NCBI RefSeq assembly: GCF_019295435.1
Contig: NZ_WEKL01000007.1
Location: forward strand, 127,212-145,015
Direction: 5' to 3'
Source: Aquimarina litoralis
GTDB lineage: Bacteria > Bacteroidota > Bacteroidia > Flavobacteriales > Flavobacteriaceae
DNA: 17,804 nt
In this document: piece after piece, positions 13,809-17,804 of the stretch
How the letters are laid out: each line of letters opens with the position of its first letter
How positions within the stretch are numbered: the first letter of the stretch is position 1
Made by a program: the position numbers and the translations under genes
Notes under the pieces: generated by a model
Databases searched by the model: none
The model's input: only the letters and a program-made list of their open reading frames with translations
What the model was told of the DNA's origin: nothing

Positions 13809-14009
13809 TTAATAGAATGGAGTTCCGCAGAAATCGCAATATCTAAGGTTGGTGTCACTTGGTCTTGCCGCTCCGCAACTTTTACATTTTTTGGTTTCAA
13901 GTCCTGCATTCGTTTCTTCAAATTTATTTGTAGAAGAAAGTGCATTACCTAAAATACTATCGAGAAGGTTCTTTTCTTCCTTTTTATTGTTGTCAGTTTT
14001 GTCCTTCAT
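13809..14009 (-). CDS. small zinc-ribbon protein
   Basis: 66 aa with a K/E-rich N-terminus. The C-terminus is CKSCGAARPSDTNLRYCDFCGTPFY (CxxC-x12-CxxC). It is the first gene of the cassette and is preceded by a 16-bp perfect hairpin. Confidence 0.5.
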   Translation of the reverse strand: MKDKTDNNKKEEKNLLDSILGNALSSTNKFEETNAGLETKKCKSCGAARPSDTNLRYCDFCGTPFY

Positions 14010-14858: not shown

Positions 14859-15200
14859 TTAGTTAAAAAAAGGTAGTACTGTGATTAGTACTATTAGTAA
14901 TAAAAAAATGATTGTACCCGTGAAATGATACCACGGAATTCTTACTTCATTTTTTTCGAAGTTTTCAAAACTTGAAATTAGTTTTTCGCTTGTTAATTCA
15001 TGCTTTTCGAAAGCACCTTTGCAATGACTACATACAGCATATACTTTTTTGCCGATAGGAAATAATGGGATCCAAAATACATGGAAATACTTTCTATATC
15101 CTTGAATCCACATTTGATTTTCTGTTTTGCAATAAGGGCAGTAACCTCCATCGAGTTTAGCAGGATGGATTGTAGAACTACTTGTTCCGAATATGATCAT
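14859..15200 (-). CDS. zinc-ribbon protein with C-terminal transmembrane anchor
   Basis: 113 aa. It contains CPYCKTEN…(x32)…CSHCKGAF (two CxxC pairs) and ends in a hydrophobic helix (TIIFLLLIVLITVLPFF). Confidence 0.55.
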   Translation of the reverse strand: MIIFGTSSSTIHPAKLDGGYCPYCKTENQMWIQGYRKYFHVFWIPLFPIGKKVYAVCSHCKGAFEKHELTSEKLISSFENFEKNEVRIPWYHFTGTIIFLLLIVLITVLPFFN

Positions 15201-15249
15201 TACGATTTATGTTAGCGATTAAACGGTTTTTAAGAGTGTTGCTTGATTA

Positions 15250-15300
15250 GAATGGGAGAGAGAATACAACCTGGTTACAAGTTCATTTCTCTCTCCATTC
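15250..15300. other. GA/TC-rich near-perfect 14-15-bp inverted repeat (GAATGGGAGAGAGAA … TTCTCTCTCCATTC), 22-nt loop
   Basis: Read directly from the sequence. The arms are complementary except for one bulged G. It lies in the 117-bp gap between the 4-TM membrane protein gene and the Zn-ribbon membrane protein gene. Confidence 0.75.
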
Positions 15301-15317
15301 TTCAACTAACTAACATA

Positions 15318-15740
15318 TTACGTGAAGAAAAGGAATGACGCTACAATCATCCATCCTCCAACGATAAGTCCAAAGAGCCCTAGTTTTCCTTGCTTAGGAG
15401 CTAGCTTTGCTCGTAATTCGTTTGCTTTTTCTTTTGCTGCTTCATTTTTTGATAAGAAGAACTTATTGATAAGTCCGAAACCTAACATAAATCCAAGTGC
15501 AGCAGAAATGATATTACCTGCTAATAGAGTTACCCACCAGATTGGATAGGTTGTAAGCCAACCTAAGTTTAAAATTGCTGAAATAATTCCCCAGATACCC
15601 CAAAAACAAAATACAAAACCAATCCATCCTTGGTAAGGTTCGATTTTTTCTAAAAGTTCTTTTGCATTAGGCTTTTTGGAAAGTAATAATGATGGCACTG
15701 CTAAAATGCTTAATAAAATTAATGAGATTCCCCAGATCAT
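15318..15740 (-). CDS. small integral membrane protein (about 4 TM helices)
   Basis: 140 aa. There are four hydrophobic segments ([16 protein letters not shown]; [19 protein letters not shown]; [24 protein letters not shown]; [20 protein letters not shown]) with a K/E-rich cytoplasmic loop. Confidence 0.55.
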
Positions 15741-15842
15741 ATCTTAATGGTTTTATAGGGTTAGTAATTAGTTTAATTTTTAGAATTTGATTAGTTGTTT
15801 ATCAAAAACTACAGTACAAAGATGCTATTTAAACAAGCCCTT

Positions 15843-15899
15843 AGAAACACCTTTTCTGGTGAAAATGACTACCCTGAAAACAGGGAGGATGGTTTTTTT
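15843..15899. repeat. copy A of a ~55-nt intergenic motif AGAAACAC-YTTTTCTG(G)TGAAA…TACCCTGAAAACAGGG containing hairpin CCCTG-AAAA-CAGGG
   Basis: Read directly from the sequence. It lies ~100-160 nt upstream of the start of the 140-aa membrane protein gene. It shares ~45 of 55 positions with copy B. The flanking AAAACTACAGT at 15805-15815 also recurs next to copy B, as AAAACTACGGT. Confidence 0.6.
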
Positions 15900-16112
15900 G
15901 TTGATAACATATTTTGGCTTAATTATCTGGCTTTTAGTTGTTTAAAAATTATTTTTTAAAGCTGTAAATTAGATGTCTGATAGCTATTGATATCCATGCT
16001 AAACTATTAGAATGGGCTAATAAAGAAGAATCTATTGGCTTTGTAATCTTTTAGCCTTGATGAAATAAACAAAATGTGCTTTGCCTTTTAAGAACAAAAA
16101 ATAATTATGGAA

Positions 16113-17438
16113 TTATGGATAAATAAGTTTAGCGGAATAACTATCAATAGATTCCCCATACATTCCTTCTTGATAAATAAAAGTATCAGGATGAATATCG
16201 AGCAATCGTTTTTCTAAATAATAAACGTGGTTTTTATCTTTGGAAAACTGAGAATTAATTATTTCGAATGATGAAATATCAGCATTGTGTATTATAGAAG
16301 ATAAATAATATACTTGTTTATGATCCTTTGCATACAGATCTTCAGAGTTTTCATATACCTTAAAACTTTTATAATCTGCTTTTTTAATTCTATTATTTAG
16401 TGCATAGATTTCTTCTTTATAAATAGAATGAATTTTGGAAAGTTCAATTAATTCCTTTTTTCGGACAAAAATGATATGATCTTCATCATAACTTAAAGTT
16501 CTATAGTGGTAACTACTTTCTATGTCACGGATTTTATTAATACTATATTTCTTGAAGTCAGGATTCATTACTTTTTTTCCGATATAATATAGATTGTTTT
16601 TATCTCTGGAAAACAACGTACTAATAAATTGATAACTGTCTGGGTCACTATCGGAAATTATTTGAGTTTTATAATACAGGTGATTTTTATCTTTTTGGTA
16701 ATCTGAATTAAGAACAGTGAAACTTTCAGGATCAATATCCTTGAGTATGTGATTTTGAAAATAGATAGCTTTTTTATCCGTAGCAAAATTTTCGGTAATT
16801 ACCTCAAAGTTTTTTGCATCAATTGTTTGTACTAATAAATCTTTATAATAGATACTATCATTTACTCTGACATAGTTTCCTTTGATGTCATTTTTTATTG
16901 AATATACTGTGTCATTTAATGTTGAAAGCCTATTTTCTTGATAAAATATAGCTGCTGTATCTTTTGAAAAATCACCCCATAAATATTGAAATGTGGCTGG
17001 ATTCGCACCTTTTATAGGGTTTCTAAAGTAATATACTGTTGTAGTATCTTTGAAATAATAATGATATTGATACTTTGTCTCTGTTTTTTCGGTTGATATA
17101 ATCTCAAATGTTTTTGGTTGTGCTCCTTCAAGAACTTTTTCATTGAAATACACATGATTTTTGTCTTTACCTAAATTATTCGCTAATACTTCAAAAGTTT
17201 CATAATCTACATTCTTGATTTTTCGAGCTCCTAGACTAAAGAAATTGGCTCCTTGAACAAATACTATAGTATTTTCTTTGTAGTAATATTGATTGCTAAG
17301 CTCTTTGTTTATGATTTTTGCTCCATTTGTGGATGGTGAAGAGACCCAGGAAAATAGTGCAATAGCTACAGCATAGTATACAATTGTTATTCCAATCATT
17401 ACAGCAATGATAATTCCTATGATCTGTAATACTTTCAT
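16113..17438 (-). CDS. DKNYY-repeat protein with N-terminal membrane anchor
   Basis: 441 aa with an N-terminal TM helix (LQIIGIIIAVMIGITIVYYAVAIALF). It then has at least 7 copies of a ~38-40-aa repeat ending in F-S/T-K-D-K-N-H-[VL]-Y-Y (GKDKNHVYFN, SKDTAAIFYQ, ATDKKAIYFQ, QKDKNHLYYK, SRDKNNLYYI, AKDHKQVYYL, SKDKNHVYYL). This is the signature of the DKNYY domain family. Confidence 0.75.
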   Translation of the reverse strand: MKVLQIIGIIIAVMIGITIVYYAVAIALFSWVSSPSTNGAKIINKELSNQYYYKENTIVFVQGANFFSLGARKIKNVDYETFEVLANNLGKDKNHVYFNEKVLEGAQPKTFEIISTEKTETKYQYHYYFKDTTTVYYFRNPIKGANPATFQYLWGDFSKDTAAIFYQENRLSTLNDTVYSIKNDIKGNYVRVNDSIYYKDLLVQTIDAKNFEVITENFATDKKAIYFQNHILKDIDPESFTVLNSDYQKDKNHLYYKTQIISDSDPDSYQFISTLFSRDKNNLYYIGKKVMNPDFKKYSINKIRDIESSYHYRTLSYDEDHIIFVRKKELIELSKIHSIYKEEIYALNNRIKKADYKSFKVYENSEDLYAKDHKQVYYLSSIIHNADISSFEIINSQFSKDKNHVYYLEKRLLDIHPDTFIYQEGMYGESIDSYSAKLIYP

Positions 17439-17614
17439 CTTTTATATTATTGTTTTTGAAGCTATAAGTAATTTACCATTTGTCATTTTTTTATATCAAA
17501 ATATTGTAACACATTTTTCATTTATAGGTTGATAATGAGTTGTTTGCTTTGTAAAAAAAATGAAATTATTACTTCTGATATAAGGGTACAAGTTTTGGAT
17601 AAATAGATATATGA

Positions 17615-17695
17615 AGAAACACTTTTTTCTGTGAAAGTTATACCCTGAAAACAGGGGTGTGCCTGTTTTATGAAAACTACGGTTTCTGGTGATTT
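17615..17695. repeat. copy B of the same intergenic motif, here with two mutually exclusive hairpins (CCCTG-AAAA-CAGGG vs AAACAGG-GGTGTG-CCTGTTT)
   Basis: Read directly from the sequence. It lies ~180-260 nt upstream of the DKNYY gene start (17438). The sequence AGAAACACTTTTTTCTGTGAAAGTTATACCCTGAAAACAGGGGTGTGCCTGTTTTATGAAAACTACGGTTTCTGGTGA aligns with copy A. Confidence 0.6.
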
Positions 17696-17804
17696 AAACG
17701 AATCACTCGGCAGTTAATTTTGTCCCATATAATAACTCACAACTAATATATTATGAGGGAAAGTATATTAAAGTTTGATTATAAATTAAAATATAGCATT
17801 CTCA

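Follow-up and report, generated by a model that had tools for sequence, protein, structure and literature searches.

The window analysed here, a 17,804-nt stretch of Aquimarina litoralis DNA, contains two minus-strand genes for membrane proteins, each preceded by an intergenic region that carries one copy (copy A or copy B) of a shared sequence module.

15318–15740, minus strand: gene for a 140-aa membrane protein with four helices, usually the first gene to follow the module (an orthologue follows 71–73 of 89 module copies)
16113–17438, minus strand: gene for a 441-aa DKNYY-repeat membrane protein (Pfam PF13644, E = 6.4e-58), behind copy B

A gene divergent from copy B starts at 17753. The 140-aa protein has 1,322 homologues, none of them named where the source gives names, and the named hosts are Flavobacteriaceae; searches of Pfam, NCBIfam and PADLOC returned nothing significant for it, and an exact look-up of the protein in public assemblies gave no record. 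Its AlphaFold2 model has a pLDDT of 78, and a structure search of this model against the PDB gave no fold match with E below 0.4.

The preliminary description of this DNA reported a repeat of ~55 nt at two sites, and the recurrence is real. An exact 16-mer (TACCCTGAAAACAGGG) occurs at 15870–15885 and 17641–17656, both on the plus strand; with up to 3 mismatches allowed, no third match is present anywhere in the window, where 0.10 matches would be expected by chance (two matches in 0 of 200 shuffles). When the two intergenic regions are aligned locally, the best match pairs 15843–15885 with 17615–17656 (38 of 44 positions identical, 86%) and scores 52; shuffles average 23 and reach 38 at most (0 of 1,000 as good). 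The boundaries first given have to be corrected: the right tails (15886–15899 and 17657–17695) are neither common to both copies nor conserved in relatives. The element instead reaches further left, to ~15812 in copy A and ~17585 in copy B, and the extension includes GTACAA-N23-AGAAACAC in both. The true length of a copy is ~75 nt (15812–15885 for A, 17585–17657 for B), and the acting strand is the minus strand. The distances given earlier to the minus-strand start codons proved right (103–145 nt for the 140-aa gene, 177–218 nt for the DKNYY gene), as did the hairpin CCCTG-AAAA-CAGGG in both copies and the overlapping alternative AAACAGG-GGTGTG-CCTGTTT in copy B only. A short satellite said to accompany the copies (AAAACTACRGT) is present at 15805 and 17673, but the homology surrounding it is not significant (106 of 500 shuffles as high), and it is missing from the counterpart of copy B in an uncultured Aquimarina (locus L018). 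An explanation of the satellite by a third promoter copy that lies upstream of copy B and has an internal deletion was rejected on the same non-significant alignment. A 54-aa plus-strand ORF (15795–15959) overlaps copy A. A coding repeat was rejected, given that the same frame meets a stop in copy B and that the copies differ by a 1-nt indel.

In all, 92 copies from Flavobacteriaceae genomes and metagenomes align essentially gap-free when anchored on their last block, and share one layout: an inverted repeat CCCTG-N4-CAGGG (core CCC-N8-GGG; O1), 10 nt, a degenerate TTTTCAC...GGTG element (O2), 23 nt and a YAnnTTTG block, predicted below to be a −7 box. Using an nhmmer profile built from 40 related copies, together with the alignment, the parts were placed in the window as follows.

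15812–15885, minus strand: copy A, whole module of the 140-aa gene, with O1, O2, putative −7 box and predicted start (nhmmer 60.4 bits, 15886–15812)
15872–15885, minus strand: O1 of copy A, CCCTGTTTTCAGGG, the inverted repeat in its consensus form, with its centre at about −66.5 from the predicted start
15848–15861, minus strand: O2 of copy A, CACCAGAAAAGGTG, a second and degenerate form of the inverted repeat that corresponds to the TTTTCAC...GGTG box, with its centre at about −42.5, 23 nt before the putative −7 box
15817–15824, minus strand: putative −7 box of copy A, reading CATCTTTG in the direction of the gene, in the column that reads YAnnTTTG in 88 of 92 copies
17585–17657, minus strand: copy B, whole module of the DKNYY gene (nhmmer 42.6 bits, 17657–17585)
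17643–17656, minus strand: O1 of copy B, CCCTGTTTTCAGGG, 1 nt nearer O2 than in copy A
17620–17633, minus strand: O2 of copy B, CACAGAAAAAAGTG, from the alignment and direct reading of the sequence
17589–17596, minus strand: weak −7-like box of copy B, AAAACTTG, aligned with the −7 box column of the other copies

The box of copy B is the poorest match among the 92 copies. Across 46 independently retrieved copies, the CCC and GGG of the O1 core are invariant or nearly so. The centre of the repeat can be TTTT or AAAA with the arms unchanged, as expected of a symmetric dimer site. Similarity to CCC-N8-GGG peaks again exactly 24 columns after O1, where on average 4.08 of the 6 core positions are matched and 75% of copies match at least 4. 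This O1–O2 distance of 24 bp corresponds to ~2.3 helical turns, so that the two elements do not lie on exactly the same face of the DNA, which counts against a tandem operator. A longer 24-bp palindrome (AAACACCCTG-N4-CAGGGTATTC), attractive in some clades, was discarded, the outer five pairs being unpaired in 57–76% of independently retrieved copies.

The last block resembles the −7 element of Bacteroidetes sigma-A promoters, which have the consensus −33 TTG / −7 TAnnTTTG and in Flavobacterium psychrophilum place this box at −12 to −5 (PMC9723704). TTTG is found in 90 of the 92 copies, YAnnTTTG in 88 and a perfect TAnnTTTG in 22; the first base is usually C (66 of 92), unlike the T of the consensus. 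A further difference is that the −33 TTG, tested at spacers of 17–21 nt, is present in just 14 of 92 copies and missing in 78, with O2 in its place; this scarcity is consistent with an activator-dependent promoter. On these sequence grounds, we predict that the block is a sigma-A −7 box and that the motif lies outside the transcribed leader. The start codon follows the box after as little as 18–28 nt (L001, L004, L074, L098 and L102), a proximity that would place the motif upstream of the transcript. Transcription is predicted to start at ~15812 for copy A (leader of ~72 nt) and at ~17584 for copy B (~146 nt).

Copies of the module keep their position in front of genes. Gene starts lie 50–200 nt away, on the strand opposite to the plus reading of the motif, in 36 of the ~43 Flavobacteriaceae loci found by DNA pattern, and the motif is present in most upstream regions of the 80 loci retrieved only through the 140-aa protein. 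The L018 locus has module, DKNYY gene, module and 140-aa gene, as in the window, and a close relative (L133) has kinase, regulator, module and 140-aa gene, after which the gene order is much like that of the window. An orthologue of this regulator (Response_reg and GerE domains; 57–100% identity) ends 8–300 nt upstream of 54 copies, and its gene is in turn preceded by that of a TPR, HisKA_3 and HATPase kinase, which has a large TPR region N-terminal to a single predicted membrane helix, plus the HisKA_3 domain. The regulator (214 aa, for example in Aquimarina latercula, locus L042) is of the NarL/LuxR type, and all members of the set have essentially the same recognition helix (LFLSKHTIESYRKNL). 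The kinase gene has a promoter with one inverted repeat placed 23 nt before a perfect −7 box, the same spacing as from O2 to the box in the module; this repeat was found in 10 of the 15 loci with at least 350 nt of upstream DNA, as well as in L006 and L133. Neither the regulator nor the kinase gene lies within the window, and the link to the regulator comes only from comparison with other genomes.

Taken from sequence comparison, these observations make it likely that each copy is a regulated promoter, composed of a tandem DNA operator for the NarL/LuxR-type response regulator and a Bacteroidetes −7 box. Among the three explanations that the preliminary description had offered (leader RNA, shared transcription-factor site, small dispersed repeat), the evidence favours the transcription-factor site, given the fixed spacing, the linkage to the regulator and the −7 box. 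In the window, the module would work on the minus strand and in the form of double-stranded DNA. Phosphorylation by the partner kinase would allow the dimeric regulator to bind tightly at O1, and the bound regulator would help a second dimer onto the weak O2 (CAC-N8-GTG inside TTTTCAC...GGTGT), which, near −42, would take the place of the normal −33 element. From O2, the second dimer would contact RNA polymerase at a promoter that has no usable −33 element and turn transcription on; we infer the binding protein from its genomic linkage, and activation, rather than repression, is the presumed outcome. The regulator's own operon is probably controlled by the same protein through the single consensus repeat at the O2 position. 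Copies A and B would then be two promoters of one small membrane/envelope-protein regulon, the former driving the 140-aa gene and possibly later genes (encoding zinc-ribbon, LipL32-like, SPFH and other proteins) and the latter the DKNYY gene. Most likely, the pairing of regulator and module is ordinary gene regulation and involves no new kind of mechanism.

A cis-regulatory leader RNA, with mutually exclusive hairpins of the riboswitch or attenuator kind and a promoter further upstream, would likewise appear as intergenic sequence that is conserved, lies upstream of genes and contains a GC-rich hairpin. Both copies have such a hairpin (5 bp), copy B permits the overlapping alternative, and the repeat arms stay complementary in many copies; we nevertheless consider this reading very unlikely. 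The module, unlike such leaders, belongs to no Rfam family: the whole window gave no hit at gathering thresholds, and 15200–17804 gave none at E up to 10. The only matches, weak ones to models of microRNAs and snoRNAs, were spurious and fell on an unrelated hairpin and within the DKNYY gene. Folding on the gene strand is no better than for shuffles (z = −0.94 and −0.48 for the two copies); with both strands of both copies folded, only the plus strand of copy A reaches z = −2.0, and copy B does not repeat that. The covariation analysis that had been proposed for the hairpins, carried out on the 46 independently retrieved copies, gave a score of 0.093 compared with a shuffled mean of 0.117 (489 of 500 shuffles at or above the observed value). 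In the same copies, the inner two stem pairs are broken in 16–18 and the five core pairs show zero double changes, and three of five close Aquimarina relatives have CACTG...CAGGG, uncompensated. The alternative hairpin is built on a flank that is not conserved. Read as RNA, a second hairpin (CACC/GGTG) is broken in 17–27 of the 46 copies, and the element is better read as a degenerate operator. The conserved −7 box downstream of the motif, with start codons soon after it, places the module upstream of the predicted start, and a spacing that different genera keep to the nucleotide is a typical mark of promoter geometry rather than of leader RNAs. The competing-hairpin model of the preliminary description was therefore not borne out.

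At the level of DNA, the same promoter module might instead be read by another transcription factor, or by an alternative sigma factor that recognizes the TTTTCAC/GGTGT region, a region conserved as strongly as the inverted repeat; an adjoining regulator gene is lacking in about half of all copies, among them the two in the window, and flavobacteria possess several ECF sigma factors whose promoters are poorly known (PMC9723704). We regard this as unlikely: the regulator gene adjoins the 54 copies over a wide range of sequence identity, the repeat recurs in the two-component operon's own promoter, TTTTCAC...GGTG reads as a degenerate copy of that repeat at the right spacing, and the downstream box is of the sigma-A type rather than the CGT type reported for ECF promoters (PMC9723704). 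It is very unlikely that the inverted repeat is mainly the intrinsic terminator of the upstream gene (the regulator gene, or the DKNYY gene in the window) with a promoter merely adjoining. The repeat does start 8–50 nt past the regulator stop codon in many loci, and a pattern scan called the minus-strand stretch 15885–15872 terminator-like (5 pairs, tail TAGTCATTTT). However, the stem has just 5 bp, its sequence is conserved across genera beyond pairing that is often lost, the promoter that follows lies at a nucleotide-exact distance, the repeat also occurs beside a divergent upstream gene (window copy B, L002 and L030), and no T run follows it in front of the kinase gene. Least probable of all, to a degree that we consider negligible, is a small selfish dispersed repeat (REP/MITE-like) in intergenic DNA by chance. 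Two similar copies do lie within 2 kb, and the DNA that separates the regulator gene from the 140-aa gene varies, with extra genes gained in some strains. The proposed check for position bias speaks against it, with two copies in 17.8 kb and 1–3 per locus of 8–20 kb, always in the same orientation before a gene; the distance to the downstream gene is constant, orthologous positions are conserved from Aquimarina to Lacinutrix, Algibacter, Cellulophaga, Maribacter and Flavivirga, and no element-like terminal repeats stood out in the flanks read.

With a regulated promoter as the preferred reading, known systems offer points of comparison. Class I/class II activator-dependent promoters and tandem sites of the NarL family (NarL heptamers, TACYYMT, in a 7-2-7 arrangement; the R1/R2 sites of VraR; the tripartite site of ComA) presumably share with the module its combination of a strong distal palindrome (O1, near −65) and a weaker site closer to the start (O2, near −42). 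We take the half-site TACCC to resemble the start of the NarL heptamer, and its spacing, on the same assumption, to differ (TACCC-N8-GGGTA here versus N6 in the 7-2-7 site).

LiaR, of the LiaFSR cell-envelope stress system (Enterococcus faecalis, Bacillus subtilis), is likewise a regulator of the NarL/LuxR type, and at its target promoter it occupies a palindrome of consensus sequence together with a weaker, secondary site next to it (~43 bp protected), whereas its own operon has a shorter site (~29 bp) (PMC4482077). The system described here similarly has a strong and a weak site at its targets (O1 and O2, 38 bp) and one site at its own operon (the kinase promoter), and target operons begin with small membrane or envelope proteins in both systems. 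By analogy, the module would function like a LiaR site, yet it is not one: CCC-N8-GGG fails the consensus T-N4-C-N4-G-N4-A (PMC4482077), and ACCCTGTTTTCAGGGT, read directly, has A, G, C and T where the consensus has its four fixed bases. In addition, a large TPR domain precedes the single predicted membrane helix of the kinase here, there is no LiaF-like partner, and the host is a member of the Bacteroidetes with −33/−7 promoters. The literature search yielded no paper with the 14-mer in a relevant context and none on the kinase/regulator two-component system.

More tentatively, and with the odds somewhat against it, the copies may belong to an undescribed, Flavobacteriaceae-wide regulon that resembles the Lia envelope-stress response and includes a landing pad for new target genes. 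If so, the TPR-domain sensor kinase and the NarL-type regulator would switch on a fixed gene set (small membrane, lipoprotein, zinc-ribbon, LipL32-like, SPFH and DKNYY proteins) through a strong-plus-weak tandem operator at the targets and a single operator at their own operon. The DNA between the regulator gene and the first target would recruit genes, such as the DKNYY gene in the window, along with a promoter copy, and accessory envelope genes of this sort could enter the regulon by bringing or acquiring such a copy. Transcription factors and operators of marine Flavobacteriaceae are barely charted, and the 77-position profile of the module (O1, O2 and box) could be used to predict the regulon of this widespread, uncharacterized two-component system in these bacteria. 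The CCC and GGG cores of O1 and O2 supply the exact bases for mutation, and the predicted starts can be checked directly.

The element noted in the preliminary description is indeed repeated: the 16-mer TACCCTGAAAACAGGG occurs at 15870 and 17641, both on the plus strand, and the window (31% G+C) holds no third match even with up to three mismatches (approximately 0.1 chance matches expected; 0/200 shuffles gave two). Aligned locally, the two intergenic regions match best at 15843–15885 versus 17615–17656, with 38/44 identities and a score of 52, which was reached by none of 1,000 shuffles (mean, 23; maximum, 38). The hairpin CCCTG-AAAA-CAGGG, an overlapping alternative hairpin confined to copy B and the short satellite AAAACTACRGT (at 15805 and 17673) are present as described. 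As for the boundaries, the repeat itself stands and the right-hand tails do not, as they are not common to both copies; the true extension is leftwards, with GTACAA exactly 23 nt ahead of AGAAACAC in both copies and a profile of related copies matching the window at 15812–15886 and 17585–17657. The features concerned are:

15812–15885: copy A of the repeat
15318–15740, minus strand: gene for the 140-aa membrane protein, behind copy A
17585–17657: copy B of the repeat
16113–17438, minus strand: DKNYY gene, behind copy B

A pattern scan (GAAA-N4–7-TACCCTGAAAACAGGG) across 185,579 species genomes returned 52 loci, of which approximately 41 were from Flavobacteriaceae (Aquimarina, Lacinutrix, Algibacter, Cellulophaga, Flavivirga, Maribacter, Croceitalea, Nonlabens and Tenacibaculum); here, similarity continued leftwards of the hairpin for approximately 60 nt. 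To avoid selection on the hairpin, a second sample of 80 metagenomic loci was fetched by the 140-aa protein alone (the window's version shares 96% identity with proteins from uncultured Aquimarina), and most of their upstream regions contained a diverged motif. In the orientation used originally, the neighbouring gene lies to the left on the opposite strand, starting 50–200 nt from the motif in 36 of approximately 43 Flavobacteriaceae loci; the functional strand in the window is therefore the minus strand. An orthologue of the 140-aa four-helix membrane protein is downstream of 71–73 of the 89 motif copies with a recognizable downstream gene. Other genes behind the motif encode a membrane-anchored zinc-ribbon protein, a LipL32-like lipoprotein, DKNYY proteins (copy B and the uncultured Aquimarina locus L018), small lipoproteins, a 136-aa protein and a large protein with NFNQPLN repeats, which we take to be BspA-like judging from those repeats; the element thus marks a small set of envelope-related genes. 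Further, more diverged copies precede other genes in the comparison loci L134 (12517–12584, ahead of a pair encoding 226-aa and 136-aa proteins), L004 (3670–3742), L037 (2590–2633) and L121 (1290–1361, ahead of a 108-aa membrane protein), which suggests that the regulon has members missed by the exact-pattern scan. Three copies that fit the exact pattern come from Flavivirga algicola alone (L017, L044 and L049).

The element is most likely a conserved promoter regulated through a tandem operator, in keeping with the shared transcription-factor site that was among the options raised initially. Its anatomy, spacing and conservation are directly visible: the alignment of 92 distinct copies on their final conserved block is essentially gap-free, and MAFFT introduced no gap into 46 independently retrieved copies. 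Read in gene direction, the order is CCCTGTTTTCAGGG, TA, 3–4 nt, (A)TTTTCAC, 8 nt, G(G/T)GT, approximately 22 nt, YAnnTTTG and TAC. At the final conserved block, TTTG is found in 90/92 copies and the fuller form YAnnTTTG in 88/92, and 22/92 match TAnnTTTG perfectly (among them TAAATTTG in Lacinutrix and TACTTTTG in Algibacter). The primary sigma factor of Bacteroidetes has TAnnTTTG as its −7 box, which lies at −12 to −5 in Flavobacterium psychrophilum (PMC9723704). Only 14/92 copies carry the customary −33 TTG. Placing the predicted start site 5 nt beyond the −7 box gives the following positions, the last three relative to that start:

approximately 15812, minus strand: predicted transcription start, copy A
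approximately 17584, minus strand: predicted transcription start, copy B
near −66: centre of the inverted repeat
near −50: TTTTCAC
near −36: GGTGT

Every 14-nt stretch of the 92 copies was scored against the six core positions of CCC-N8-GGG. Besides the expected peak on the repeat itself (O1; 5.87/6), there was one more sharp peak exactly 24 columns past O1 (4.08/6; at least 4/6 in 75% of copies), and no other position exceeded approximately 2.2/6. The TTTTCAC...GGTG box (O2) is thus the same repeat in degenerate form (CAC-N8-GTG), and it ends 23 nt ahead of the −7 box.

The tandem operator is most likely recognized by a NarL/LuxR-type response regulator. Genomic linkage to such a regulator gene is itself directly visible. 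An orthologous gene for a 214-aa protein with Response_reg and GerE (LuxR-type helix-turn-helix) domains ends 8–300 nt upstream of 54 copies on the same strand (in the window's genome, it lies outside the window), and is preceded by a gene for a 700–750-aa kinase (Pfam: TPR repeats, HisKA_3 and HATPase; by eye, a signal-peptide-like N-terminus and one hydrophobic helix past the TPR region). Among 15 loci in which at least 350 nt of DNA precede the kinase gene, 10 have the same inverted repeat there on its own, as do L006 and L133 (a close relative), and it always lies 23 nt ahead of a perfect −7 box (TACATTTG, TATCTTTG and TACCTTTG). This repeat occupies exactly the O2 position; the kinase operon thus carries a lone consensus site at approximately −42, and the targets have a weak site there and a consensus site one step upstream. 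The recognition helix of the regulator (LFLSKHTIESYRKNL) is essentially invariant across orthologues down to 57% identity, which is consistent with the invariant CCC/GGG cores. In one clade (L089, L095, L103, L106 and L107), the repeat is of the CCCCA-TTTT-CAGGGG type and TTTACCC replaces TTTCAC; in those members whose neighbouring regulator was read (L089, L095, L106 and L107), the helix is HTIEGYRK instead of HTIESYRK, which may reflect protein–site co-variation or simply shared ancestry.

With the binding protein and the direction of regulation both inferred, we propose that a phosphorylated regulator dimer would bind O1 and help a further dimer to occupy the weak O2 (approximately −42), which would bring RNA polymerase to a promoter without a −33 element; the single consensus site in the kinase promoter would allow autoregulation. 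The nearest characterized analogue of this two-site target and one-site own-operon arrangement is LiaR, which protects approximately 43 bp (consensus plus 'secondary' sequence) at its target liaXYZ and approximately 29 bp at its own liaFSR operon (PMC4482077). Because the site here does not match the LiaR consensus, it would work like a LiaR operator without being one. No description of the motif or of the two-component system was found in the searchable literature; the module is useful for annotating Flavobacteriaceae regulons, and the mechanism itself, of a well-known kind, is not surprising.

The suggestion of mutually exclusive, riboswitch-like hairpins is not supported, on several counts. 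An Rfam search of the window gave no match for the motif, and gene-strand folding was no better than for shuffled sequence (z = −0.94 and −0.48). Among the 46 independently retrieved copies, three C–G pairs are invariant and so uninformative on covariation, pairing at the two inner stem positions fails in 16 and 18 copies and is never restored by a compensatory change, and the putative second hairpin is broken in 17–27; the whole-structure covariation score (0.093) fell below the shuffled mean (0.117), with 489/500 shuffles at least as high. CACTG...CAGGG, seen in 3/5 very close Aquimarina relatives, is a single uncompensated change, and the alternative hairpin of copy B relies on non-conserved flanking bases. 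The repeat centre is TTTT in most copies and AAAA in at least eight with the arms unchanged, a swap that is natural for a symmetric protein site. From the −7 box to the start codon, the median distance is 67 nt, shrinking to only 18–28 nt in L001, L004, L074, L098 and L102, such that the motif would not fit inside the predicted transcript.

Might the inverted repeat be a terminator? A simple scan flags that of copy A as terminator-like, and the repeat often lies close behind the regulator's stop codon; however, it is sequence and not pairing that is conserved, the distance to the next promoter is nucleotide-exact, the repeat also lies behind divergent genes (copy B, L002 and L030), and no run of T follows the repeat ahead of the kinase gene. 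Low copy number, constant orientation and conservation at orthologous positions exclude a selfish element, and with it the dispersed-repeat option of the preliminary description. The main remaining alternative to the response regulator is that another regulator or sigma factor reads the module.

As a regulated promoter, copy A is predicted to serve the 140-aa gene and copy B the DKNYY gene; copy A may also serve the long minus-strand run past the 140-aa gene (zinc ribbon, LipL32-like, 66-aa protein, 254-aa protein, SPFH, DUF6620 and others). This gene order closely matches L133, in which kinase and regulator genes stand at the place of the window's DKNYY gene and copy B; L018 shares the window's DKNYY arrangement. 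The DNA from the regulator to the 140-aa gene spans approximately 300 nt in L133 and approximately 9 kb in L134, in which the genes lying there encode a 218-aa protein, PorP/SprF, a 1650-aa FG-GAP/HYR/CHU_C protein, a Pel9A-like protein and a 263-aa protein. These differences indicate a variable interval from the regulator to its first target, with the DKNYY gene placed there with its own promoter copy, and the region (17657–17752 in the window; also L018, L133 and L134) looks like a hot spot of gene gain. On the plus strand, an ORF at 17753–17804 (MRESILKFDYKLKYSIL...), divergent from the DKNYY gene, begins 97 nt past the copy B repeat and runs off the window; its L018 counterpart encodes a large secreted protein with FG-GAP repeats, whose N-terminus differs. 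The 66-aa ORF (13809–14009, minus strand), between the LipL32-like and 254-aa genes, is probably a real small gene; it is also called in L133, and L030 has a 66-aa ORF at the equivalent place, directly behind a module copy and before a 254-aa gene, with a zinc-ribbon-like C-terminus (CNGCG...CDFCG).

Just past copy B, AAAACTACGGTTTCTGGTGA (17673–17694, plus strand) resembles two non-adjacent segments of copy A, namely TCACCAGAAA and CTGTAGTTTT (gene strand); a third, internally deleted promoter copy left as a scar was rejected, as the similarity is not significant (106/500 shuffles). Several families of direct repeats (22–56 nt, 65–86% identity) at 16200–17170, inside the DKNYY gene, reflect the protein's repeated DKNYY domains (five Pfam stretches) and not a separate DNA element. 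Between the 140-aa stop (15318) and the zinc-ribbon start (15200), a long, very stable hairpin (GAAGAATGGAGAGAGAA...TTCTCTCTCCCATTC; 15232–15315, minus strand; −36.6 kcal/mol, z = −5.4, 0/200 shuffles) lacks a following run of T, and causes spurious Rfam microRNA matches. In three close Aquimarina relatives, its stem is conserved and its loop differs. The hairpin may serve as an intra-operon attenuator, processing site or stabilizer that sets the ratio of the 140-aa to the downstream genes. The last approximately 50 nt before the 140-aa ATG (15741–15790, minus strand) form a leader, TTAAACTAATTACTAACCCTATAAAACCAT, that is almost invariant in five Aquimarina loci, with a variable mid-leader, and might act as a signal for translation initiation or as an additional regulatory element.
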